In this document: in pieces, positions 3 to 13,494 of the stretch
Position numbering within the stretch: position 1 is the stretch's first letter
Layout: each line of letters starts with the position of its first letter
Origin: an uncultured virus (IMG/VR IMGVR_UViG_3300020166_000018)
Taxonomy: Duplodnaviria > Heunggongvirae > Uroviricota > Caudoviricetes
Length of the DNA stretch: 20,000 nucleotides
Virus record (IMG/VR): IMGVR_UViG_3300020166_000018
Strand: one strand, 5' to 3'
The notes under the pieces: generated by a model
The model's database searches: none
Told to the model about the DNA's origin: nothing
The model's input: only the letters and a program-made list of their open reading frames with translations
Translations under genes and position numbers: made by a program

Positions 3-815
3 CAGGGACCCGAAGGTTTAATCGGTCCTAAAGGTAATGATGGTGGTATTGGTGCTATAGGTCCTAAGGGCGTTATAGGTCCATTAGGCCCACAAGGTCC
101 TGAAGGTTTAATTGGCCCTATCGGTATAGGAAACGTTCAAGGTGCTATTGGTCCAATAGGTCCAGGTGTAGCTCAAGGTGCAATTGGTCCTAAAGGTCCC
201 CAAGGTCCTGAAGGTTTAATAGGCCCAATTGGTCCCGAAGGCTTAATTGGTGCTAAAGGTCTTTTAGGTCCTTTAGGTGCAATTGGTCCCAAAGGTATTA
301 TAGGTGCTATTGGAGTAATAGGTCCACAAGGACCCGAAGGTTTAATAGGTAATAAAGGTCCAATTGGTGCTATAGGTGCAATTGGTCCTAAAGGTATTAT
401 AGGTGCTATTGGACCCTTAGGTCCCCAAGGTCCTGAAGGTCTTATAGGACCTAAAGGTAACGATGGTGGTATAGGCGCTATAGGTCCTAAAGGTATTATT
501 GGCCCCAAAGGGAACACAGGTGCAATTGGTCCACAAGGTCCTATTGGTCCTATAGGAATTGGAGCAGGTATAGGTCCACGTGGTCCTATTGGTCCTGCAG
601 CCCCACAAGGTGCAATTGGTCCTATTGGTCCTATAGGTCTTGAAGGTTTAATTGGTCCTATAGGTCCTGAAGGTTTAATTGGTGCTAAAGGTATAGCAAA
701 TGTTCAAGGTGCAATCGGCCCCAAAGGTCCTACAGCATCAATTGGTGCAATTGGACCACAAGGACCCGAAGGTTTAATAGGTCCACAAGGTCCTATTGGT
801 CCAAAAGGTGAAGCA
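3..815 (+). repeat. Collagen Gly-X-Y repeat block 1 (~270 aa, continues off the left edge)
   Basis: 9-nt periodicity GGN-NNN-NNN. Dominant triplets are [18 protein letters not shown]. Confidence 0.95.
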
Positions 816-3800
816 AATGAAATTGAAGGTAGTGTATTAATAGAAACGTTTTCAACCCATGGAGGTAATGGTAATACTTCCCAATACTCACAATACCCAG
901 GTAATGCTTCAGATTTTGAATCATTCTTTAATGTAAACCTATCAAATACATCATTTACAGATTCAGCAGTTGATAGTTTAAGTAATACTACAAATGCTTT
1001 AAATTGGACTAATACTGCAGGATTACAAACAATTTTAACTGTTCCAAATTCAGGAGCATATTTTTCAACCAGAGTAACAGGTATTTTTAGACCTAAAGAA
1101 ACTGGTACATATACTTTTTCAGCTGAATCCGATGATTCTGTCCAAGTAAAAATTGGAAGTACTATAGTTTACGGTTTTTATGGAGGTAGAGGTAGAAGTA
1201 GTGTAGGAACTCATACTGGTACCGTTTCATTAACAGCAGGTACTAGTTACAATATTGTAGTTTACCAACAAGAGTATGGTGGTGGAGATGGTTTAACTGT
1301 ATGGTGGAAAAAACCATCAGAATCCTCAGGTTCTACATGGTACCAACACACAGACGAAATTTTCACTTCAGGTGATCAAGGATCTCAAGGTTCACAAGGA
1401 CCACAAGGTTCTATAGGTCCTAGAGGCCCTGAAGGTTTAATAGGAAATAAAGGTCCTATTGGTGCAATAGGTGCAATTGGTCCTAAAGGAAATACTGGAG
1501 CGATTGGTCCACAAGGTCCTGAAGGTTTAATAGGCCCAATAGGCCCTATTGGTCCAACCGCCCCTATAGGTGCTAGAGGTCCTATAGGTCCAGGTGCTCC
1601 TATAGGTGCTAGAGGCCCTATTGGTCCACAAGGACCAGAAGGTTTAATAGGTCCACAAGGTCCTGAAGGTTTAATTGGTAATAAAGGTCCAATTGGTGCT
1701 ATAGGTGCAATTGGTCCTAAGGGCCCCATTGGTGCTATTGGACCATTAGGTCCACAAGGTCCTGAAGGTTTAATAGGAAATAAAGGTCCAATTGGCGCTA
1801 TTGGTGCTATAGGTCCTAAAGGAAATACAGGTATTATAGGTCCACAAGGTCCTGAAGGTATTATAGGCCCAAGAGGTCCTATTGGTCCTGCGGCCCCACA
1901 AGGAGCTAGAGGCCCAATTGGTCCAGCAGCACCTCAAGGTGCTATAGGTCCCATTGGTCCACAAGGACCAGAAGGTTTAATAGGCCCACAAGGTCCTGAA
2001 GGTTTAATAGGAAATAAAGGCCCAACAGCTCCTATAGGTGCTATCGGTCCTATTGGTCCTAAGGGTCCTGAAGGCTTAATAGGCCCACAAGGACCAGAAG
2101 GTTTAATTGGTAATATAGGCCCAGCAGCACCTCAAGGTGCTATAGGTCCCAAAGGTCCTGCAGCCCCACAAGGTGCTAGAGGTCCCATTGGTCCACAAGG
2201 ACCCGAAGGTTTAATTGGTCCACAAGGGCCCGAAGGTTTAATAGGTCCCAAAGGTCCTGCAGCCCCACAAGGTGCAATTGGTCCTATTGGTCCACAAGGT
2301 CCTGAAGGTCTAATTGGTCCACAAGGACCCGAAGGTTTAATAGGTCCCAAAGGTCCTGCAGCCCCACAAGGTGCAATTGGTCCTATAGGTCCTAAAGGAA
2401 ATGAAGGTGCAATAGGTCCACAAGGACCTGAAGGTTTAATTGGTAATATAGGCCCTGCAGCACCACAAGGTGCAATCGGTCCTAAAGGAAATACAGGCGC
2501 AATAGGCCCACAAGGCCCTGAAGGTTTAATAGGTCCAATTGGTCCTATTGGTTTAGCAAATGTTCAAGGTGCAATTGGTCCTATAGGTCCTAAAGGAAAT
2601 GAAGGTGCAATAGGTCCAATTGGTCCTGAAGGTTTAATAGGTCCCAAAGGTCCTGTTGCTCCCCAAGGTGCAATCGGTCCTAAAGGAAATACAGGCGCAA
2701 TAGGCCCACAAGGCCCTGAAGGTTTAATAGGCCCAAGAGGTCCTATTGGTTTAGCAAATGTTCAAGGTGCTATAGGTCCTAAAGGAAATGAAGGTGCAAT
2801 AGGTCCACAAGGACCAGAAGGTTTAATAGGTTCTAAAGGCCCTGAAAGTGCAATTGGACCTAGAGGTCCATTAGGGGAAAAAGGTCCAAAAGGTCCAAAA
2901 GGGTATACTGGTCCACGAGGTCCTAAAGGCCCTAAAGGTCCAGCATCTACCTCAGGAATTGGTCCTAAAGGTCCTGAAGGTGCAATTGGACCTAAAGGTC
3001 CAGCTTCTCCTTTGGGCCCAGAAGGCCCTATTGGACTAATAGGTCCTGGTGTTTCTCCTTTAGGCCCAGAAGGCCTTATTGGACCACAAGGTCCAAAAGG
3101 TGCTGAAGGTGCAATAGGTCTAATTGGTAATATAGGCCCAGCTAATATTACTCAAGGTCCACTAGGTCCCCAAGGTCCTGAAGGTTTAATTGGTCCCAAA
3201 GGTAATAGAGGTCCTATTGGTCCCCAAGGACCCGAAGGTCCTATTGGTCCAACAGCCCCACAAGGTGCAATTGGTCCTATAGGTCCTAAAGGAAGTGAAG
3301 GCGCAATAGGTTTACAAGGTCCAATTGGTCCCGATGGTCCTCAAGGTCCTGGGGGTCCAGCTGGAGCTATAGGCCCTAGAGGTCCTATAGGTCCTAAAGG
3401 AAATGAAGGTGCAATAGGTCCAATTGGTCCTAAAGGCCGTATTGGTCCTAAAGGTGTTACAGGTAATGGTCTAATAGGTACAACAACCAATGTAGCAATA
3501 GATACAGTTCCTTACCAACACAGTATGGAATTTGCAAATGGTTATCTCCAATCACATTCTGCAACATATAAAAATTATCGTTACTACCATAATGATGGAG
3601 TAAATGATTATGTTGCTGGAGATTGGGATCCTGTAGATGCTAACCCAGGAGAAGATGATTTTTCAATTAATTTTTGGGTTCGTAATAATGAGACAGATAA
3701 AACTAATATGATCTTTTGTGATTTTAATGCAGTTGCATTAAACGTTAATAATAATAACAATAGATGTTTTATCCAATACGCAGCAAATACTAATAGATTA

Positions 3801-4274
3801 CTACTACAGTTAAGAACTAATGCTACTAACTTTGGTTTACAAGTCCCCCTCCATAATAATTCAGGTACTACAGGAATTACAAGTTCATCTTCAGGATGGA
3901 GAGCTGCCCAACGTGGTAACGTCAATAGTGATAACTTCTGTATGATTACAGTTACCTATGATGCTTCTCAAACTACAGGGGCTAATGCTATTAAAATTTA
4001 TTGGAATGGTACTCGAATATCTAATAGTCAAGTATCACTTAACGGAACTAGTAATGCTAATTGTGATATGGATGAATGGGCTTACTACAAGAAAATCCTT
4101 TCTACTAGTGAAATTACTACATTATATAATAGTGGTAATATTAAAGCTGCTGACCTTTTAGTATCTAATGGTTTAACAGAAAGTTGTAGATTTGATATTA
4201 ATGGAAGTGCCACTACAACAGGTTCAACTTATACTAGCGTTAGTATTTCAGGAGGTACAACCCCATTATATTAA
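3..4274 (+). CDS. Giant collagen-like fibre protein (5' truncated, >=1423 aa): Gly-X-Y block / PA14 domain / Gly-X-Y block / LamG-ConA-like C-terminal domain
   Basis: Hand translation of the frame starting at nt 3 ([22 protein letters not shown]...) stays open and in frame with the tracked ORF 3012..4274, whose TTG 'start' is an internal Leu. Gly-X-Y repeats span about 3-815 and 1371-3485. Confidence 0.92.
816..1370 (+). other. PA14 domain (~185 aa insert) within the collagen protein
   Basis: Translation [37 protein letters not shown]...[34 protein letters not shown] matches the PA14 pattern (R.TG...P.ETG.YTF...SDD; L.AG..Y.I; E.GGG..L...W..P). The DD pair is at 1131-1136. Confidence 0.85.
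1371..3485 (+). repeat. Collagen Gly-X-Y repeat block 2 (~700 aa)
   Basis: Gly-X-Y with short interruptions and a recurring GPQGPEGLI unit. The string ggtcccaaaggtcctgcagccccacaaggtgc recurs at 2145, 2244 and 2343 (99-nt period). Confidence 0.95.
3570..4271 (+). other. LamG / ConA-like lectin jelly-roll domain at the fibre C-terminus (putative receptor binding)
   Basis: Motifs [25 protein letters not shown] and [23 protein letters not shown] follow the Laminin_G_3 pattern (FS...W; i..tyD; .lYvNG; iDE..iy...Ls..eI..lY). Confidence 0.8.
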
Positions 4275-4286
4275 TTTAAATAAATT

Positions 4287-4538
4287 ATGAGTACTAGATA
4301 TTTTTTAATAACAGGGTCAGAATATACAAATTACGATAGTTCTTTAGATCAACCCGCAGCATGGAATTTAGATAATAGTAAATGTGTTATAGAAGTTCCA
4401 ACTGGATTTACAGTTACTTCCTATATTCAAAAATTTAGAAGTAGTGGAGAATTTAAAACTTGGAGAAATGCTGATGCTAATTGGCCCGATTGGGAGACAC
4501 AAGCTCAACATGATGGCACAGATTTAGACGATTTCTAA
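4287..4538 (+). CDS. Hypothetical protein (83 aa) directly after the fibre gene
   Basis: ATG 12 nt after the fibre stop, TAA stop, fills the gap to the next gene. No motif recognised. Confidence 0.75.
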   Translation: MSTRYFLITGSEYTNYDSSLDQPAAWNLDNSKCVIEVPTGFTVTSYIQKFRSSGEFKTWRNADANWPDWETQAQHDGTDLDDF

Positions 4539-4554
4539 AAAACAAGTAAATGTT

Positions 4555-5706
4555 ATGAAATTAGTTATATATGCGGGGTATTATTCCCCACCCTACTCAC
4601 CTGAAACTATTGACGAAATTGGTTTAGGAGGTACTGAACAATGTATTATAAATTTAGCTAAAACCCTTAAATCCCAAAATCCAATTTGGGATATTTGGGT
4701 CGTTGGTGGAGTAGTTTATGGTGATTACGATGGAGTAATGTATAGACCTACACAAGATTTCAAAAATGAAGTTAAATCTGTAGATACTATAATCGGAGTT
4801 TCATACATTCATTACATTGAAGAATTTAAAAACATCGATTATACCGACTCAATATTTTGGGTACATAATACCGATTATTTTACGTGGTGGAATGGCGAAG
4901 AATTACCCAACCATCGTGAATTACTTTCAAATCCAAAACTAAAATCTATAGTTTGCTTAACAGAATGGCATAAAAACAAATTCATAGAACAATTCCCAGA
5001 AACACAAGATAAAATTCAAGTTATAGGTAATGGAGTAGATACTTCTAATTTTCAAGTAGGAGAAAAAAACCCAAATCAATACATTTACACTTCACATGCT
5101 GAACGAGGTTTAGGGCAAGTATTAAGTGAATGGAATGATATTTTATTAGTAAACCCAAACGCAGAACTTAAAATATCAACCCCACAATACGGCTTAGAAT
5201 ATTATAACCTTTATTACAAAGATTGGGTAAGTAGTTTGGATAACACAGAATTCCTTGGTACATTACCACAACACGAGCTATACAAACTAATGGCTGAGAG
5301 TACTTATTGGTATTACCCCTCATCATATGAGGAAACCTTTTGTATCACGGCATTAGAGATGTTAGGACATAATGTTCAACCTATTACATGGGAATGGGGT
5401 GGATTAAAAGAAACATTAAATAATTTTAATACCCGAGATAGAAATGAATCTTTAAATTGGGGTAAAGTAAACGAATATTTAGAACAATGTAATTGGGAAT
5501 CCAGAGTAAATAATAATTGGTTACCCCTACTATCAAAAGCAAATATGAAATTAGATAAATTTTACGTTTTAGCATTAAATGAAACCCCAGAAATGAGAGA
5601 AAAATGTGATAATTTACATTTACCCTCTCCTACTCCATATTGGATTAAACCTGGGGTTTTGATGCTAGACAAATGTCTCAAGAAGATTGGGATAAATTTG
5701 GTGTAG
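4555..5706 (+). CDS. GT4 (GT-B) glycosyltransferase domain followed by the N-terminus of a GT25 domain; 5' part of a frameshifted fusion gene
   Basis: N-terminal GLGGTEQ, VIGNGVD and the E-x7-E motif ETFCITALE indicate GT4. From 5545, MKLDKFYVLALNETPEMREK...WIKPG resembles a GT25 N-terminus. Sequence after ~5655 in this frame looks out of frame and ends in TAG. Confidence 0.82.
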   Translation: MKLVIYAGYYSPPYSPETIDEIGLGGTEQCIINLAKTLKSQNPIWDIWVVGGVVYGDYDGVMYRPTQDFKNEVKSVDTIIGVSYIHYIEEFKNIDYTDSIFWVHNTDYFTWWNGEELPNHRELLSNPKLKSIVCLTEWHKNKFIEQFPETQDKIQVIGNGVDTSNFQVGEKNPNQYIYTSHAERGLGQVLSEWNDILLVNPNAELKISTPQYGLEYYNLYYKDWVSSLDNTEFLGTLPQHELYKLMAESTYWYYPSSYEETFCITALEMLGHNVQPITWEWGGLKETLNNFNTRDRNESLNWGKVNEYLEQCNWESRVNNNWLPLLSKANMKLDKFYVLALNETPEMREKCDNLHLPSPTPYWIKPGVLMLDKCLKKIGINLV

Positions 5707-6887
5707 CAAAACACACTAGGTGGAATATAGAAGGTAGCAATCCTTGGTGGAAACGCGATGTAATGGAAGGTGAGTTAGGCTGTGGTTTATCTCATGTTGA
5801 TACATGGGTTGATGCTTATCGTGAAGGTTTAGAAACAGCACTTATTTTAGAAGAAGATTTCTACCAGGAGAGACCAGTAGATTGGGATCAAATAGGTCAA
5901 CTTATAGACAAAGGTTATGATTTAATTTATTTAGGTCGTAATGCCTTAGAAGCTTATCTAGAAAAACCAATTGAAGGTGTAGAAGGATGGGTAGAACCCG
6001 ATTATACCTATAATTCACACGCTTATATTTTATCTAAAAGAGGTATTCAAATTTTAGTAGAAGAATACATGGAGCAATACAAAAGTGAAATGTTTGCTTT
6101 TGATGAGTTCCTTTCTATTACTTTTGGTATGACCCATCGCCAGGATATTTTAGGTGAGTATTATGGTAAAACACGTTTAAGAGCAGCAGCTCCCGTAGAA
6201 GATTATTATACTCAAAAAGATAGCCCAGGATTAACGTTTTATATAGCGGAAGAAAAAAAAAACCCTTTAATAATTAGTTCTCCTAAATTTGGTATAGCTA
6301 ATGATGATAATTGGGAACAATGGTGTATAGATTATATACACCCTGTAATAAGAAAAGGTCAATATAAATTAATGGTAGATGAAATTGCCCCTAATGTAAT
6401 TGAATTTCCTTTATTCACAGAAAAGTTTTGTAAAGAAATGATTGTTTTAGCAGAAGATAAAGAATGGGTAACAGATAGACATACTTTTTACCCTACTACT
6501 GATCAAACTATGGAAAGTTTAGGCTTACAACATATTTACCAAAGGGTATTAGAACAATTTGTATATCCTATTTGGACTTGGTTTTGGGATTTACAAGGTG
6601 AAGGTTGGGATAATTTAAAAAGTGAAAATTTTATAGCTAAATATGATACAGAAAATCAAGGTAGCTTAGACTTGCATCATGATAGTTCTGTTATTACATT
6701 AAATGTAAGATTAAATAATGGATTTAAAGGTGGAGGAACATTCCTCCCAAAATATAAAACTACAGTACAACCACGAAAAACAGGATATGCAATGTCCCAC
6801 CCAGGAAATATTACACATTTGCATGGTGGTAGACCAGTAGAAGAAGGAACACGTTATATATTAGTATCATTTACAGACAAAAAATAA
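5673..6887 (+). CDS. GT25 procollagen-galactosyltransferase-like domain + PLOD-like lysyl hydroxylase (2OG-Fe(II)) domain; 3' part of the frameshifted fusion (frame open from 5649)
   Basis: GT25 motifs: GELGCGLSH, ALILEED, YDLIYLGR, EPDYTYNSHAYILS, DEFL. Hydroxylase motifs (~6300-6880): YIHP, FPLFTEKFC, PTTD, NFIAKY, QGSLDLHHDSSVITLNV, GGGT, HPGNITHLHGG, GTRYILVSF. Confidence 0.88.
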   Translation: MSQEDWDKFGVAKHTRWNIEGSNPWWKRDVMEGELGCGLSHVDTWVDAYREGLETALILEEDFYQERPVDWDQIGQLIDKGYDLIYLGRNALEAYLEKPIEGVEGWVEPDYTYNSHAYILSKRGIQILVEEYMEQYKSEMFAFDEFLSITFGMTHRQDILGEYYGKTRLRAAAPVEDYYTQKDSPGLTFYIAEEKKNPLIISSPKFGIANDDNWEQWCIDYIHPVIRKGQYKLMVDEIAPNVIEFPLFTEKFCKEMIVLAEDKEWVTDRHTFYPTTDQTMESLGLQHIYQRVLEQFVYPIWTWFWDLQGEGWDNLKSENFIAKYDTENQGSLDLHHDSSVITLNVRLNNGFKGGGTFLPKYKTTVQPRKTGYAMSHPGNITHLHGGRPVEEGTRYILVSFTDKK

Positions 6888-6890
6888 AAT

Positions 6891-7508
6891 ATGGACACAC
6901 TTTATTCATTTCCCCTAGATTTTGACAAATATGTCAATCAAAGCAATTATTATTGGTTTGAGGAAGGTTTTACAGCAGAAGAACTTCAAACCTTAGAACA
7001 ACAAGTCCAAGAAATTCCATCCCAAGCTGGAGTAACCGAATCAGGTAATCAAGATGAAGGTGAGGGGTTAGAATCTCGTAATTCTATGATTAAATGGGTT
7101 CCGTTTAGTGATGAAACTAAATGGATTTATGACAAAATTGGAATGTTAGCTAAAACTGCTAATGATGAAATGTTCCATTTTGATATCCATAACATGCCTG
7201 AAAATATCCAGTACACAGAATACTATGGTACTAATAAAGGCCATTACGATTGGCATATGGATATTGGAACTGAAGGCTTTATGAAATTTCGTAAAATTTC
7301 AGTTACAGGGGTTCAACTATCAGATTCTGATGAATATGAAGGTGGAGATTTACAAATTTGGCCTGGTGGTCAAACTCCTTATACTGCACCACGTGGTAAG
7401 GGTAATGTAGTAATATTTCCCTCTTATTTAATGCATAGAGTAACACCTGTTACTTCAGGTACTAGAAAATCATTTGTACTTTGGTTAGGAGGAGCTCATT
7501 TTAAGTAA
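6891..7508 (+). CDS. 2OG-Fe(II) oxygenase (P4Hc/PKHD-like phage hydroxylase)
   Basis: YDWHMD (HxD), RKISV, YEGGDL, FPSYLMHRVTPVTSGTRKSFVLW (distal His and 2OG-binding Arg). Confidence 0.9.
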   Translation: MDTLYSFPLDFDKYVNQSNYYWFEEGFTAEELQTLEQQVQEIPSQAGVTESGNQDEGEGLESRNSMIKWVPFSDETKWIYDKIGMLAKTANDEMFHFDIHNMPENIQYTEYYGTNKGHYDWHMDIGTEGFMKFRKISVTGVQLSDSDEYEGGDLQIWPGGQTPYTAPRGKGNVVIFPSYLMHRVTPVTSGTRKSFVLWLGGAHFK

Positions 7509-8269
7509 TGAAGGTAGCAGTTTGTGTTAGTGGTCAACCCCGCAATTACGAACAGGGTTACCATGAATTAAAAAAATGGTTTTTAGATAAGTATGATTGT
7601 GATGTTTATCTCCATACTTGGAAAGATACTAATTCAACAATGGGGGGAGGACATAAGTTCTCTACCCCTATTGAATATCAATTTACTGAAAATGATTATA
7701 CCCAAATCTCAGAATTATACAACCCAGTCAAAAGTCATTTTCAACTCCCAATTCCCTTTGATACAACAGAAATCAAGGGGCATTTAGGTTATAAATTACA
7801 TAATATCCTTAGTGGTTACTATTCAGTATATGCTTGTAATAAACTTTTACAAGACTCAGGTAATAAATATGATTATGTTATCCGTACTAGATTTGATTTA
7901 TCTTTTACTGATTATATTTCCCCCGAATGTATATTTTTAAAGGATATTACTCAACTAGAGTTAAATGGTATAAATGTATTTCAATACCCTATAGTTAATG
8001 GTTTTACAACTCGTATATCAGAAGTAGATGATTTATTTGCTGTAGGTTCTATGGATGTTATAAACACTTACTCTAATTGTTTTTCATATATGTTAAAGTA
8101 TATTTACATGGATAAAAAATACCCTGAATGGTTAGAAACTGTAGTCTCAGGTAATCCTGATAAGTTATGTCCTGAAAGTTTATTAAAGTATCATTTAATA
8201 CAAAATGGTATTGAAATTAACTATATAGATAGTCTAACCGATAATTTCACAGCTCATATTTTACGATGA
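7508..8269 (+). CDS. Putative glycosyltransferase-like protein, paralog 1 (SGQPR...RFD type)
   Basis: MKVAVCVSGQPR, DVYLHTW, YDYVIRTRFDL, DLFAVG. TAATG overlap with the upstream gene. Function inferred from motifs and context. Confidence 0.6.
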   Translation: MKVAVCVSGQPRNYEQGYHELKKWFLDKYDCDVYLHTWKDTNSTMGGGHKFSTPIEYQFTENDYTQISELYNPVKSHFQLPIPFDTTEIKGHLGYKLHNILSGYYSVYACNKLLQDSGNKYDYVIRTRFDLSFTDYISPECIFLKDITQLELNGINVFQYPIVNGFTTRISEVDDLFAVGSMDVINTYSNCFSYMLKYIYMDKKYPEWLETVVSGNPDKLCPESLLKYHLIQNGIEINYIDSLTDNFTAHILR

Positions 8270-9015
8270 AAATAGCATTATTAATTAGTGGTCAACCACG
8301 TAGGTATAGGGAAGGGTATCAAGAACTTAAAAAATGGTTTTTAGATAGATATGATATCGATGTATATCTACATGCATGGAAAGATACTGAATTTAAAAAG
8401 TATGATTTTTTTAATGAAGGTAAAGTTCAAAAAACATATGAAGTAGGAGATGATTTATACCAAAATTTATTAGATTGGTACCAACCAAAAGGCTATTTAT
8501 TTGAACCATCAATTGAATTTGATTCATCAGGTCTAAAAGGACCCAACAACCAACGTTTAAATTCTCAAATGGGCATGTGGATGTCTACACAACGCGTTTG
8601 GGATTTATGTGAATCTTCAGGTATAGAATATGATTTAGTTTTTAAAACTCGTTATGATCTTTTATTTACTCATTACGTTGCTAATAATTGTGATTTATTA
8701 ACTGATTTATCAAAGTTAGATAAGAATCGTGTTAATTTCTGGGAGTATGCTCCTCATTGGAACATGGACTGGCAAATGAATGATCAATTAGCTATTGGCC
8801 CACCTAACTTAATGAAAAAATATTGTAGCGTGTTTTCTGAAATGTTATTTAATATATTTTATAATCCGGAATACAGGGATGGAAATAATGATATATTCAT
8901 TAATGAAACATTAATTTTACAACATATAAATAATAAACATATTCCACTCAAACCAATGTATCATGGGTTCGAAGGATCTAGAGGTATTGATTGTGGGTGT
9001 CATATAATGAGATAA
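8266..9015 (+). CDS. Putative glycosyltransferase-like protein, paralog 2
   Basis: MKIALLISGQPR, ELKKWFLD.YD.DVYLH.WKDT shared with paralog 1, YDLVFKTRYDL, NDQLAIG. ATGA overlap with the upstream gene. Confidence 0.6.
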   Translation: MKIALLISGQPRRYREGYQELKKWFLDRYDIDVYLHAWKDTEFKKYDFFNEGKVQKTYEVGDDLYQNLLDWYQPKGYLFEPSIEFDSSGLKGPNNQRLNSQMGMWMSTQRVWDLCESSGIEYDLVFKTRYDLLFTHYVANNCDLLTDLSKLDKNRVNFWEYAPHWNMDWQMNDQLAIGPPNLMKKYCSVFSEMLFNIFYNPEYRDGNNDIFINETLILQHINNKHIPLKPMYHGFEGSRGIDCGCHIMR

Positions 9016-9016
9016 T

Positions 9017-11437
9017 ATGAAAGAACCAAAAGTTTTTTTTTATAATAACCACACTAGAGATTTTTACCGAGAACTCCAAAAACACCTCCCAGTTAAATTT
9101 AGGAATTTTACTGTAGGTAAATCTTGGTCGGGTCTTTCAGATGAACCCCATAATGGTGAACCTTATTTAAATGATATTGATAAAAAATTATTAGTAGAGC
9201 AAACAGTATGGGGTGATAATGATAAGTTAGTAGATCGCTCAATTTATTCTCACCACCCTAATGAATTTGAACATAATGTAAATTTGGTTTTAAATGAATC
9301 TAATCACCATTATTACTACCACAACTACCAAGGTCCTAAAATAGCGTATAATGTTTGGGAATCTACTAGACAAGAAGAAGGATTTTTTAATAAATTATTA
9401 GAATTTGATCAAATTTGGGTTCCTTCTCAATGGCAAGCAGATTGTACTATTGCTCAAGGAGCTAATCCCGATAAAGTAAAAGTAGTACCCGAAGGAGTAG
9501 ATACAAAAACCTTCTACCCAGAAGATCCCCAAACTACTTTAGATTATGTAGATGGTAGATTTAAATTTATTATCTTTGGCCGTTGGGATTATCGAAAATC
9601 TACAAAAGAGATGATTGAAACTTTCCTTAAAACTTTTGACCCATCCGAACCTGTAGACTTAATTGTTTCTATTGATAATATGTGGGGTAAAAATATGGAT
9701 GGTTTTGAAACTACAGAAGAAAGACTAGAACACTACGGATTTACTGATGAACGAATTAAAGTAAAACACTTCCCCTCTAGAGAAGATTACATTACATATT
9801 TAAAAAATGGTCATGTATTTTTATCATGTGCTAGAGCTGAAGGTTGGAATTTACCCTTAATTGAAGCTATGGCTTGTGGTACCCCATGTATCTACTCAGC
9901 TGATTCAGCTCAAATGGAATTTGCTAAAGGTAAAGGTCTACCTGTAAAAATTAAAGGTTTAAAACCTGCTAATGATGCTACATATGCTCGTTATAAAATG
10001 GCCAACAGTGATACCCCAGGTGATTACCCGGAACCTGACTTTGATGATTTAGCTCTTGTAATGCGAGATGCCTTTGAAAATTATACAGATCATAAAAAAC
10101 GTGCTCTAGAAGAATCTAAAATTATTCATAGAGATTTTAATTGGGAACGCATTGGTAAAATTGGAGCTGAAACTCTTAAAGACTTCTTAAAAAATTATAA
10201 AGAACCAAAAGATACAAACACCATAAAAGTTAACTACATAGGAGCCCCAAAGGTAGAAATTTTAGGTAATGTATCTAAATCTTATAAAGTAGAATTTATT
10301 AATCAAGAAACTAATGAAGTAATACACCAGGATACTATTACTAATGGTATGTGGACTGTCTGTAATAAAGAATATTATATCCCTTGGTTGATTAAAGTTA
10401 ATGGTAAAGAAATTTCTCGTTTAGATATTAAAAATCAAAAGATTTTAATTTCTTTAGAGTCTAAATCTATAGGCGATACTTTAGGTTGGGCACCTTACGC
10501 TATAGAATTTGCAAAAAAACATAAGTGTAAGGTTTATTTATCAACTTTTCATAATGAATGGTTTGAAGGTTTAGAATCATACAAAAATATTACATTTATC
10601 AAACCAGGCACTAATACTGAATGTGTAGCTCATTATAGAATAGGATGGTTTAAAGATAATGATAATAAATGGAATGTAGGGTCCCATAACCCTAGACAAT
10701 GTAATACTATTCCAATGCAGGCAACTGCATCTGATATTTTAGGGTTAGATTTTAAAGAAATAAATCATGGGGTTAATTTTCTCCCTAAAAAACGCCCCTT
10801 AAAGGAAAAGTATATTTGTATAGCTCCTCGTTCTACTGCTGGATGTAAAGAATGGCCACATTCTAATTGGTCTATTTTATCTAAACTTTTAAAGGGTTTA
10901 GGTTATAAAGTAATTAGTATATCTTACGAAGGATTTAAAGGTAAAGATATTATAGATAGACCAGGACTTAATTGGGAGGATACCTATAATTACCTTTATC
11001 ATGCAGAAGCCTTTATAGGGTTAAGTTCCGGTATTTCTTGGTTTAATTGGGCAATATCTTACGAAGGATTTAAAGGTAAAGATATTATAGACAGACCAGG
11101 ACTTAATTGGGAGGATACCTATAATTACCTTTATCATGCAGAAGCCTTTATAGGGTTAAGTTCCGGTATTTCTTGGTTTAATTGGGCAATGAATAAGCAT
11201 TCATTTATGATTAGTGGTTTTAGTGAAAAAGATCATGAATTTACTACAAATGTAACTCGTATTTCAAGTGATTCATGTTTTCCATGTTGGAATAATAAAA
11301 ACTTTATGTTTGATGCTGGGGATTGGAATTGGTGTCCTATTCATAAGGATACTGAACTACAACATATTTGCCAGAAATCTATCCATCCTAATCAAGTTTT
11401 TAAACAAATTAAACAACGATTAACTAGTAAAAAATAA
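9017..11437 (+). CDS. Two-domain glycosyltransferase: N-terminal GT4 + C-terminal autotransporter heptosyltransferase (TibC/Aah)-like domain
   Basis: GT4: VWES, WVPS, VVPEGVD, FGRWDYRK, EGWNLPLIEAMACG. C-half: SKSIGDTLGWAPYAIEFAKKH, YICIAPRSTAGCKEW, FIGLSSGISW, and the Cys cluster CFPCWN...WNWCP.HK...ICQKSI. Contains an in-frame 45-aa duplication. Confidence 0.8.
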   Translation: MKEPKVFFYNNHTRDFYRELQKHLPVKFRNFTVGKSWSGLSDEPHNGEPYLNDIDKKLLVEQTVWGDNDKLVDRSIYSHHPNEFEHNVNLVLNESNHHYYYHNYQGPKIAYNVWESTRQEEGFFNKLLEFDQIWVPSQWQADCTIAQGANPDKVKVVPEGVDTKTFYPEDPQTTLDYVDGRFKFIIFGRWDYRKSTKEMIETFLKTFDPSEPVDLIVSIDNMWGKNMDGFETTEERLEHYGFTDERIKVKHFPSREDYITYLKNGHVFLSCARAEGWNLPLIEAMACGTPCIYSADSAQMEFAKGKGLPVKIKGLKPANDATYARYKMANSDTPGDYPEPDFDDLALVMRDAFENYTDHKKRALEESKIIHRDFNWERIGKIGAETLKDFLKNYKEPKDTNTIKVNYIGAPKVEILGNVSKSYKVEFINQETNEVIHQDTITNGMWTVCNKEYYIPWLIKVNGKEISRLDIKNQKILISLESKSIGDTLGWAPYAIEFAKKHKCKVYLSTFHNEWFEGLESYKNITFIKPGTNTECVAHYRIGWFKDNDNKWNVGSHNPRQCNTIPMQATASDILGLDFKEINHGVNFLPKKRPLKEKYICIAPRSTAGCKEWPHSNWSILSKLLKGLGYKVISISYEGFKGKDIIDRPGLNWEDTYNYLYHAEAFIGLSSGISWFNWAISYEGFKGKDIIDRPGLNWEDTYNYLYHAEAFIGLSSGISWFNWAMNKHSFMISGFSEKDHEFTTNVTRISSDSCFPCWNNKNFMFDAGDWNWCPIHKDTELQHICQKSIHPNQVFKQIKQRLTSKK
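10919..11188 (+). repeat. Tandem direct repeat, 2 x 135 bp, in frame
   Basis: 10919-11053 and 11054-11188 are identical except a synonymous T/C (10957 vs 11092). Duplicates ISYEGFKGKDIIDRPGLNWEDTYNYLYHAEAFIGLSSGISWFNWA. Confidence 0.95.
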
Positions 11438-11754: not shown

Positions 11755-13494
11755 ATGGCAGAAACATTAGTATCACCTGGCGTATTAGCAAGAGAAAACG
11801 ACCAGTCATTTATCACGCAGCAACCTGTTCAAGTAGGTGCTGCCATCGTTGGTCCTACAGTAAAAGGTCCTGTAGAAATTCCTACAATAGTAACTTCATA
11901 TTCAGATTACCAAAACAGATTTGGTACTACATTTGAAAGTGGTAGTGATGAATATTCATTCATGACTAACATCGCAGCATATAACTACTTCCAAAATGGA
12001 GGTAATACTATGTTAGTAACACGTGTAGTCTCAGGTTCTTCAGATTGGGATTATGCTGAAGCAGAAATTCCAGCTTCTGGTAGTGGTACTTCATTTACAA
12101 TTGAAGCTATTGATAAAGGTATTATCTTTAACAATTCAGCATCCGATGGTGTAAACCTAATTGTTGGTGGTTCAGGATCTTTAGTAGACGGTACATCAGA
12201 TAATATTAGATGGGAAATTGCTAACTCATCTCAAGATGATGGTAATTTTACTTTATTAGTAAGACAGGGTAATGACAATGATAATAATAAAATTATTTTA
12301 GAGTCTTGGACTAACTTATCATTAGATCCTAAAGCTGATAATTACGTTGCTAAAGTAATTGGTGACCAATATTACACTTACAATAGTACAGAAAATTATA
12401 TTGAAATTACAGGTTCATATGCTAATGCCTCTAGATATATTAGAGTATCAACTGTAAATTTAAAAACACCAAATTATTTTGATAATGCAGGTAATGCTAA
12501 ATTAGCATATACAGCATCTGTACCACAAGTAGGTTCAGGTTCATATGGTGGTACTTTTGACGATGGTGATGGTAACATTATTCCATCAGGTAGAACAATG
12601 AATCTTTACGGTGACATTAACGCTACTGATACTCAAGGTTTAGTTGGTACTGATTACGATAATATGTTAGACTTATTATCAAATCAAGACGATTACCAAT
12701 TTAACTTATTAGTAACCCCAGGTTTGATTGATACAGCTCAAACTTCTCAAATGACTACTGCTTTAAACAATACTCAAATGAGAGGTGATAGTATTTACAT
12801 TATGGATTTAGTTCCTTATGCTTCCACTATTACAGCAGCAAACACACAAGCTAATGCTAGAAACTCATCATATGGTGCTGCTTACTGGCCTTGGTTACAA
12901 ACAATTGATCCAGATATGGGCGATCAAGTATGGGTACCAGCTTCGGCAATGATTCCGGGAGTATACGCGTTTAACGACAATGCCTCTGAACCATGGTTCG
13001 CTCCGGCGGGTATTAATAGAGGTGGTTTAACCACAGTAATTCGCCCAGAAAGAAAATTATCTCAAGCTAACAGAGATAGTTTATACCAGAATAAAGTTAA
13101 CCCAATTGCTTCATTCCCAGGTGTAGGAACAGTAGTATACGGTCAGAAAACATTACAACGTCAAGCTAGTGCTTTAGATAGAGTAAATGTTAGAAGATTA
13201 TTAATTGCTCTTAAATCATACATAGGTCAAACAGCTCAAACGTTAGTATTTGAACAAAATACAGCAGCTACTAGAAATAATTTCTTAGCACAAGTAAACC
13301 CATACTTAGAATCAGTAGTTCAAAGACAAGGTTTATATGCGTTTAAAGTAGTAATGGATGAAAGCAACAACACCCCAGATGTAGTAGACAGAAATCAGAT
13401 GGTAGGTGCTATTTATTTACAACCAACAAAAACAGCTGAATTTATTATCTTAGACTTTAACGTATTACCAACTGGAGCAACATTCCCTAGTTAA
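11755..13494 (+). CDS. Contractile tail sheath protein (T4 gp18-like)
   Basis: N-terminal SPGVLAREND and VGPTVKGP. C-terminal AYWPWL, PWFAPAGINRG, VNPI, GQKTLQ, ALDRVNVRRLL, VFEQN, PTKTAEFI. Confidence 0.96.
   Translation: MAETLVSPGVLARENDQSFITQQPVQVGAAIVGPTVKGPVEIPTIVTSYSDYQNRFGTTFESGSDEYSFMTNIAAYNYFQNGGNTMLVTRVVSGSSDWDYAEAEIPASGSGTSFTIEAIDKGIIFNNSASDGVNLIVGGSGSLVDGTSDNIRWEIANSSQDDGNFTLLVRQGNDNDNNKIILESWTNLSLDPKADNYVAKVIGDQYYTYNSTENYIEITGSYANASRYIRVSTVNLKTPNYFDNAGNAKLAYTASVPQVGSGSYGGTFDDGDGNIIPSGRTMNLYGDINATDTQGLVGTDYDNMLDLLSNQDDYQFNLLVTPGLIDTAQTSQMTTALNNTQMRGDSIYIMDLVPYASTITAANTQANARNSSYGAAYWPWLQTIDPDMGDQVWVPASAMIPGVYAFNDNASEPWFAPAGINRGGLTTVIRPERKLSQANRDSLYQNKVNPIASFPGVGTVVYGQKTLQRQASALDRVNVRRLLIALKSYIGQTAQTLVFEQNTAATRNNFLAQVNPYLESVVQRQGLYAFKVVMDESNNTPDVVDRNQMVGAIYLQPTKTAEFIILDFNVLPTGATFPS

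Follow-up and report, generated by a model that had tools for sequence, protein, structure and literature searches.

A 20,000-nucleotide (nt) stretch of DNA from an uncultured tailed virus (IMG/VR record IMGVR_UViG_3300020166_000018, Caudoviricetes; hereafter, the window) carries one gene for a predicted three-domain enzyme, in which a glycosyltransferase (GT) domain of the GT4 type, a GT25 domain similar to the human collagen galactosyltransferase COLGALT1, and a lysyl-hydroxylase domain similar to those of PLOD proteins and mimivirus L230 follow each other on a single chain. The gene occupies positions 4555 to 6887 of the plus strand, downstream of a gene for a giant collagen-like fiber protein, and is split by a frameshift into two overlapping open reading frames (ORFs), ORF1 and ORF2. 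Domain similarities, catalytic residues, and conserved gene order together make it likely that this enzyme hydroxylates and glycosylates lysines at the Y position of the G-X-Y repeats of the fiber. The predicted protein represents a new architecture among multifunctional collagen lysine-modifying enzymes, carried by tailed phages.

ORF1 (4555-5706, plus strand, 383 amino acids [aa]) encodes the GT4-like domain of GT-B fold and, from M331 onward, the first part of the GT25 domain, MKLDKFYVLALNE starting at 5545. ORF2 (5673-6887, plus strand, 404 aa) overlaps ORF1 in the −1 frame, which is open from 5649. These coordinates, the frame relation, and the passage of GT25 from ORF1 into the −1 frame across ctGGGGTTTTgat (5651-5663) are as described in the first-pass annotation of this DNA. 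Comparison of the junction with relatives located the frameshift that splits the gene at a plus-strand G run with two extra letters (5653-5656). Past 5656, ORF1 runs through 17 out-of-frame codons (VLMLDKCLKKIGINLV, followed by the stop), and the ATG of ORF2 at 5673 corresponds to M373 of the intact protein. In a search of 3122 candidate proteins of 722 to 2060 aa, 172 reached E ≤ 1e-3, and 120 of these were listed. Whole, collinear homologs, 723 to 859 aa in length and matching no less than 99% of the 412-aa ORF2 frame with 46 to 99% identity, made up 113 of these 120. The protein P0001 is a whole copy of 776 aa, 99% identical, that reads straight across the junction (...WIKPGFDARQMSQ...; ...PYWIKPGFDARQMSQEDW...). 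At the DNA level, for which 15 related viral contigs were used, the junction is CCTGGGGTTTTGAT in the window and CCAGGTTTTGAT, CCTGGGTTTGAT, or CCCGGATTTGAT in the relatives. It is in frame in all 11 loci located by motif scan. Two loci outside the motif pattern (L012 and L014) are nonetheless single uninterrupted ORFs, and two other contigs (L013 and L015) do not reach across the site. Because all related loci are in frame, the window is the sequence with two letters too many, and the site is not a conserved shift site. Subtraction of these letters leaves 2331 bases, i.e., 776 codons and a stop. Twenty public sequencing runs match all or part of the window, 18 of them with at least half of its sampled words, and Logan contigs from four were compared with it. 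X2, X9, and X10, the three runs (from three studies) with contigs across the site, all leave out two letters at 5653, and these contigs show only one or two other differences from the window over ∼800 to 2030 bases. ORF1 and ORF2 are thus two pieces of one gene encoding 776 aa, and the insertion is not shared by the phage population at large. The first-pass annotation had proposed a single gene of about this size and had looked to the sequence around 5653 and to intact fused homologs for a decision; the contigs lacking the two letters, the in-frame loci, P0001, and the collinear homologs all side with it.

The two additional letters are most likely an expansion of the G run, most simply from GG to GGGG, caused by an assembly or sequencing error or present as a private null allele. 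We regard as unlikely the alternative that the insertion is real in this genome and marks a split or decaying allele, with ORF1 producing a GT4 protein that ends in a nonfunctional GT25 remnant and ORF2 an N-terminally truncated GT25 domain joined to the hydroxylase. In its favor, the window sequence itself shows the extra letters, so that its own copy of the gene is broken. The contigs of X1, the possible source run, have a gap (4633-6504) that spans the insertion site and do not contradict the insertion for that sample. The enzyme gene is also interrupted in two related loci, at other places (L008:4791-7115, 635 plus 125 aa; L011:1-1637, 341 plus 171 aa). Weighing more heavily on the other side are the near-identical contigs of three other studies without the two letters and the condition of the two pieces, which are otherwise 99% like the intact homolog and free of further damage. 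Moreover, a G run beside a T run is a typical site of length miscalls. A genuine split would deprive the ORF2 product of residues 331 to 367, which form the opening strand and helix of the GT25 fold and include K350, a conserved basic position occupied by K or R in 57 of 59 aligned sequences. A programmed −1 ribosomal frameshift at GGGGTTTT, yielding a short and a long product, would also reconcile the two frames, as a −1 slip at this site restores the reading frame. This explanation was rejected, and its probability is negligible, because the shift is conserved in none of the 11 related loci and the three covering runs lack the two letters. Furthermore, the protein restored in this way would have one extra residue that is seen in no homolog, and the codons read in the zero frame (cct-ggg-gtt-ttg) do not match the slippery heptamer X_XXY_YYZ of −1 frameshift sites.

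The C-terminal domain (residues 580 to 776; 6294-6887 on the plus strand, stop included) resembles collagen-modifying enzymes. In a phmmer search against all PDB chains, the best solved match was human LH3/PLOD3 (E = 1.1e-23, 86.5 bits), with mimivirus L230 also matching strongly (E = 3.8e-21, 78.2 bits). The next oxygenase family, that of prolyl 4-hydroxylases, appeared only at E = 2.4e-3 and 19.3 bits, i.e., ∼60 bits below. Foldseek superposed the domain on the hydroxylase domain of L230 with template modeling (TM) scores of 0.86 to 0.87, a root mean square deviation of 2.0 to 2.3, and 30 to 31% identity (0.86, 2.0, and 31% for 6ax6), and its best structural match in BFVD is the "procollagen-lysine 5-dioxygenase" of Megavirus courdo11. 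By both sequence and fold, the domain is therefore closer to lysyl hydroxylases than to other 2-oxoglutarate (2OG) oxygenases. It also retains the His-x-Asp...His iron triad and the 2OG-binding arginine of collagen lysyl hydroxylases. H707 (6675-6677), D709 (6681-6683), and H756 (6822-6824) align to H667, D669, and H719 of LH3, and R766 (6852-6854) aligns to the arginine of the GTRY motif. H707 is conserved in all 120 listed homologs, and each of the other three residues in 119. Mutation of H667, D669, and H719 in LH3 is reported to leave the human complex without any of its three activities (PMC11897130). The PLOD-like character assigned to this domain at first pass is thus supported, and the COLGALT1 and PLOD motifs named at that time are present in the HMMER alignments. 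Pfam returned weak OGFOD2-like and 2OG-FeII_Oxy matches on ORF2, and a protein search limited to the hydroxylase region retrieved mostly members of the same family and no named PLOD. In a FastTree phylogeny of 141 hydroxylase domains (arbitrary root, deep forks mostly with support under 80), the window falls inside a clade of GT4-GT25-hydroxylase proteins with support of 97. One uncultured Caudovirales protein already carries the automatic name "procollagen-lysine 5-dioxygenase".

The middle domain spans residues 331 to ∼565 of the intact protein, and its remainder in the second frame lies at 5649-6251 (plus strand). The Pfam GT25 model (PF01755) scores 26.2 bits on ORF2 and 26.1 bits on P0001, above the cut-off of 24, and 33 to 81 bits on relatives. 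Its only solved relatives are four COLGALT1 sequences in PDB (E = 1.2e-13), which supports the COLGALT-like label of the first-pass annotation. The phmmer score to COLGALT1 (54 bits) is higher than that to the Pfam family model (26 bits), PDB holding COLGALT1 alone for the family. These bit scores are only suggestive of kinship with COLGALT rather than with the bacterial lipooligosaccharide galactosyltransferases. The metal-binding E-x-D is present, with LILEED of the phage domain aligned to LVFEDD of COLGALT1. E432 (5850-5852) and D434 (5856-5858), along with D516 and E517, are conserved in 120 of the 120 listed homologs. The pair E432 and D434 aligns with E435-x-D437 of COLGALT1, which is described as binding Mn in the catalytic GalT-C domain and whose mutation abolishes activity (PMC11897130). 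By analogy with COLGALT1, and given the fusion to a hydroxylase, the GT25 domain would transfer galactose to hydroxylysine (Hyl).

The N-terminal domain (residues 1 to ∼327; 4555 to ∼5535, plus strand) had been read as GT4. The EX7E motif marks this family, whose members are retaining (alpha) enzymes, whereas those of GT25 are inverting (beta). Both the motif and the two-Rossmann GT-B fold of retaining GT4 enzymes were found, in agreement with that reading. The two glutamates, E260 (5332-5334) and E268 (5356-5358), are each kept in 118 of the 120 listed homologs. Foldseek matches are retaining GT-B enzymes, glycogen synthases among them; MshA, PimB', PimA, GlgM, and tll1591 have TMt values of 0.57 to 0.69, of which the alpha-1,2-glucosyltransferase tll1591 reaches 0.68 to 0.69. 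The glycosyltransferase family phrog_2170 matches ORF1 with E = 4e-12, and relatives pass the cut-offs of GT4-type Pfam models (e.g., P0152 with 45.1 bits). The scores of the domain itself speak less clearly for GT4, as on ORF1 and P0001 Glycos_transf_1 attains 25.7 to 26.3 bits, just under its cut-off of 26.4, and Glyco_transf_4 attains 24.2 to 24.5 bits versus a cut-off of 28.5.

An AlphaFold2 model of P0001, built on a 59-sequence alignment, has a mean pLDDT of 89.5, a disordered linker at residues 566 to 576, and a pTM of 0.49; with this pTM, the domains are confident and their mutual arrangement is not. To place this chain among its relatives, the hydroxylase domain was run with HMMER over 1.84 billion representatives, retrieving 2130 proteins with E ≤ 1e-3, 70 of them with E ≤ 1e-30. 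Of the 82 listed proteins with a length of 380 aa or more, 72 were scanned for their architecture (Pfam E ≤ 1e-5). The layout of the window, hydroxylase with GT4-type and GT25 domains, occurs in 17 of the 72. In 22 proteins, the hydroxylase is joined to GT25 with no other recognized transferase, and in 8 it is joined to GT25 plus GT_PLOD. GT_PLOD without GT25, the layout of PLOD and L230, accounts for another 8, and a GT4-type domain without GT25 accounts for 3. Another 3 carry different partners (peptidase C39, a P4H-like domain, and DUF6445), and the oxygenase alone or nothing recognized is found in 11. Coupling of GT25 to the hydroxylase is thus recurrent, being shared by many scanned proteins with a varied third domain. 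The third position is taken by either of two unrelated transferase folds, which by analogy supports the idea that GT4 here does the work of the GT_PLOD glucosyltransferase. The architecture differs from that of PLOD3, as the first-pass annotation had stated, since the transferase of PLOD3 and L230 is Pfam GT_PLOD. Nor are the homologs always separate genes, the outcome that the same annotation had set against a fusion; 113 of the 120 listed are fused.

The family is abundant in marine metagenomes, with at least 113 clusters at 90% identity, and its members are publicly labeled "hypothetical protein" or "glycosyltransferase involved in cell wall biosynthesis". Megablast of positions 4287-8269 against a phage collection gave no match, and tblastn of both ORFs against it gave only partial matches with 24 to 30% identity, none covering 80% or more, so that the fusion was not found in the cultured phages of that collection, from which close records may be absent. 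Scans of viral contigs for loci with P0129 and P0153 returned none. In full-text literature searches, neither a lysyl hydroxylase from a phage nor a GT4-GT25-hydroxylase fusion was found to be described; the literature retrieved covers mimivirus L230 and R699, human LH3 and COLGALT1, and bacterial collagen-like proteins.

The enzyme gene follows the collagen-like fiber gene (3-4274, plus strand), open at its 5′ end and encoding 1423 aa within the window. The product of the fiber gene, the proposed substrate, matches Pfam Collagen (E = 6.8e-103), PA14 (E = 6.6e-9, residues ∼272 to 456), and many PHROG tail-fiber families (up to E = 1.7e-164), and contains 279 G-X-Y triplets. All 42 lysines of these repeats are at Y and none is at X, and the 156 prolines are all at X. 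The Y position is described as the site of lysyl hydroxylation in animal collagens (PMC13382579). A collagen-like ORF immediately precedes the enzyme in all 10 related loci with upstream flank, and the arrangement extends to distant relatives. In L016 to L018 (41% GC), the enzyme is 35% identical and collinear over its full length, and a 1682-aa collagen-like ORF lies ∼1.2 kb upstream with 108 lysines at Y and none at X. In L020, the enzyme is 38% identical in the same arrangement, with 70 lysines at Y and 5 at X. These adjoining upstream fiber genes with lysine at Y strengthen the case for the substrate, and the enzyme is very probably aimed at the phage's own collagen-like fibers. The internal PA14 domain, of a carbohydrate-binding type, is present in only five related loci.

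A reaction sequence can be proposed on these grounds. In the infected cell, the hydroxylase domain would turn the Y-position lysines of the G-X-K-G repeats of the fiber into Hyl. The GT25 domain would then add a beta-linked hexose, galactose by analogy, to the new hydroxyl, and the GT4 domain a second, alpha-linked sugar. This last step would be the counterpart of the nonhomologous GT_PLOD step in LH3 and in mimivirus R699. That one 776-aa polypeptide runs the whole series (Lys to Hyl to hexosyl-Hyl to dihexosyl-Hyl) on the phage's own fibers in the bacterial cytoplasm, with a GT-B enzyme convergently replacing the GT-A glucosyltransferase of LH3 and R699, is a serious possibility that we advance tentatively, as somewhat closer to doubt than to acceptance. 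A product with the exact animal linkage, Glc(a1-2)Gal(b1-O)Hyl, is assigned a much lower probability.

Several observations weigh against modification of fiber lysines by this route. The copy of the gene in the window is itself broken. Sugars and linkages are not readable from sequence, which leaves the mechanism predicted, and L230 is reported to put glucose, not galactose, on Hyl (PMC9546862). The occurrence of lysine at Y is not independent proof, because X is mostly proline (156 of 279 triplets). In the hydroxylase tree, the clade of the window sits in the microbial and viral half, and PLOD-type sequences (e.g., P0236, GT_PLOD 393 bits) sit in the other. Among bacterial reference genomes, moreover, 20 of 21 loci with a hydroxylase relative have no collagen-like ORF within 6 kb, L020 being the only one that does. 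Stand-alone relatives of ∼200 to 220 aa (L021 to L036), encoded on contigs from the chromosomes of Thiothrix, Thiolinea, Leucothrix, Cocleimonas, and further Thiotrichaceae, are 43 to 46% identical to the window domain, closer than LH3 or L230. In Thiothrix eikelboomii, the 221-aa relative (L023:6058-6723) lies among ubiA/ubiD, a LuxR-type regulator gene, recQ, and glyQS. With most bacterial relatives in such noncollagen contexts, the hydroxylase family is not tied to collagen everywhere, and with stand-alone bacterial relatives closer than LH3 and L230, similarity alone does not fix the substrate; the collagen-lysine case rests on fusion and conserved synteny.

These same data bear on a rival explanation, in which the oxygenase targets another residue or another protein rather than the lysines of collagen repeats, and the transferases glycosylate that product. 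The lack of collagen-like neighbors in 20 of 21 bacterial loci, the housekeeping surroundings of the Thiothrix copy, and the higher identity to bacterial relatives (43 to 46%, versus ∼30% to L230) are in line with it, as are fusions of the hydroxylase to peptidase C39 and to a P4H-like domain. Yet the fused phage forms of three lineages all adjoin collagen-like genes with lysine at Y, and LH3 and L230, the only proteins of this fold and motif set to have been characterized, both hydroxylate collagen lysines. We accordingly leave this alternative a small but appreciable share of the probability. Aquimarina sp. RZ0, a cultured flavobacterium with a draft genome, has a GT25-hydroxylase gene (L019, 4271-6337) that is 55% identical over residues 369 to 776 and adjoins IS200 and DDE transposase genes and an extracytoplasmic function (ECF) sigma factor gene; no collagen-like ORF was found within the 12 kb examined.

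Both GT domains might instead modify host envelope glycans (lipopolysaccharide [LPS]/O-antigen or capsule), for instance, to block superinfection, the link to the fiber being merely positional. Database labels point this way, as Pfam calls GT25 "LPS biosynthesis protein" and the Joint Genome Institute (JGI) labels the homologs cell-wall glycosyltransferases, and transferases beside marine pelagimyophage tail-fiber genes have been read as O-chain modifiers (PMC7029224). An envelope target, however, leaves unexplained the fusion to an LH3/L230-type hydroxylase in 113 of the 120 listed homologs, the COLGALT1-specific similarity, and the position after collagen-like genes, which is kept down to 35% identity. 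We consider it quite improbable and favor modification of the fiber lysines.

Comparison with known systems highlights what the phage enzyme shares and where it departs. Mimivirus L230 (PDB 6ax6, 6ax7, and 9nev) is likewise viral, combines hydroxylase and transferase in one chain, and acts on the virus's own collagen-like proteins, the type of target proposed for the phage enzyme. It differs in belonging to a giant virus of amoebae and in its GT_PLOD/GT-A transferase, reported to add glucose directly to Hyl (PMC9546862), whereas the enzyme of this tailed bacteriophage has GT4 and GT25 and no GT_PLOD. Human LH3/PLOD3 and GLT25D1/COLGALT1, which form the KOGG complex (8zgc, 6fxk, and 9evj), provide the same three chemistries that are predicted for the phage, i.e., hydroxylation of lysine, galactosylation of Hyl by GT25, and then addition of a second sugar. 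In KOGG, however, these are divided between two separate proteins in a complex, LH3 contributing the glucosyltransferase as a GT-A domain and COLGALT1 carrying an additional GT domain. A single 776-aa chain would bear all three in the phage, with the third activity assigned to an unrelated GT-B enzyme (GT4). The mimivirus proteins R699, a collagen galactosylhydroxylysyl glucosyltransferase, and R655, which is GLT25D-like, are viral counterparts of the sugar steps. They are separate proteins, R699 being LH-GT-like (GT-A) rather than GT4 and the activity of R655 being putative in that source (PMC9546862). A related design is that of metagenomic GT25-GT_PLOD-hydroxylase fusions (P0208, P0225, P0243, P0245, P0256, P0259, P0133, and P0191; 641 to 1159 aa), which likewise join members of these hydroxylase and GT25 families on a single polypeptide, as COLGALT and PLOD combined. 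Unlike the phage enzyme, they have GT_PLOD as the third domain, place GT25 first, and belong to the opposite half of the hydroxylase phylogeny. Further dioxygenase families are predicted to hydroxylate bacterial collagen-like proteins (PMC2938197).

Hyl formation and Hyl-O-glycosylation of collagen have so far been described in animals and, among viruses, in mimivirus (L230 and R699). The present data place the same kinds of enzyme in tailed phages, with a new domain order and a nonhomologous third transferase. If the predicted activities are correct, the range of Hyl glycosylation would widen from an animal and giant-virus specialty to a widespread feature of marine phage fibers, and these proteins would amount to a natural experiment in ways of assembling the pathway. 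A single gene from a bacterial context could then serve to make hydroxylated and glycosylated recombinant collagen in bacteria, production of modified recombinant collagen being a stated need (PMC9546862). By extension, some "LPS-type" transferases next to fiber genes of phages may target the fibers rather than the host surface.

The window has low GC (∼29 to 48% per kb) and all long ORFs on the plus strand, and corresponds to the structural module of a marine contractile-tailed phage, with genes for tail sheath (11755-13494), tube, and baseplate proteins. The nearest cultured relative of the sheath is that of Flavobacterium phage vB_FspM_immuto (53.7% identity), and L020, with its full-length relative of the enzyme, is a 24-kb contig binned as Flavobacteriaceae; on these two grounds, the host is possibly a flavobacterium. 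Gene order is conserved among the related loci: one or more collagen-like genes, a small variable ORF, the fused enzyme, a 204- to 205-aa 2OG oxygenase, one to three phrog_13607/DUF7796 genes, a 757- to 806-aa protein with GT4 and heptosyltransferase domains, sheath, and tube. The small ORF (4287-4538, plus strand, 83 aa) stands between the fiber and enzyme genes in nine loci with 22 to 64% identity and has no Pfam or PHROG match; it may encode a fiber-tip assembly factor. The C-terminal noncollagen domain of the fiber (residues 1157 to 1423) is only 40 to 73% identical across nine related loci, and together these fast-evolving parts behave as a receptor-binding tip and its helper would.

The second 2OG-Fe(II) oxygenase (6891-7508, plus strand, 205 aa; PKHD/PiuC/P4H-like) matches Pfam 2OG-FeII_Oxy_3 (E = 5.7e-13) and PKHD-type hydroxylases in PDB (E = 5e-6). 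It lies directly downstream of the enzyme gene in every locus, with 79 to 98% identity in 14 loci and 46% identity at the same position in L016 to L018, and probably belongs to the same fiber-modification module. It is more conserved than the large fused enzyme. A role as Y-position prolyl 4-hydroxylase was considered for this protein and dropped, as the fiber has no proline at Y and the best solved relatives are of PKHD/PiuC type; with all fiber prolines at X, classical Y-position prolyl 4-hydroxylation is unlikely.

Two paralogous genes follow on the plus strand (7508-8269 and 8266-9015; 253 and 249 aa). They belong to phrog_13607, with a weak DUF7796 match, and are conserved in 14 loci; between one and three such genes are present per locus. 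Before the tail sheath gene, the plus strand also encodes an 806-aa fusion (9017-11437) of a GT4 domain (Glycos_transf_1, E = 4.9e-10) and an Aah/TibC-type protein O-heptosyltransferase (TIGR04414, 253.6 bits versus a cut-off of 200, residues 421 to 681). As enzymes of the TIGR04414 family (Aah/TibC autotransporter O-heptosyltransferases) glycosylate proteins, this fusion constitutes a second predicted protein-glycosylation activity in the fiber block.

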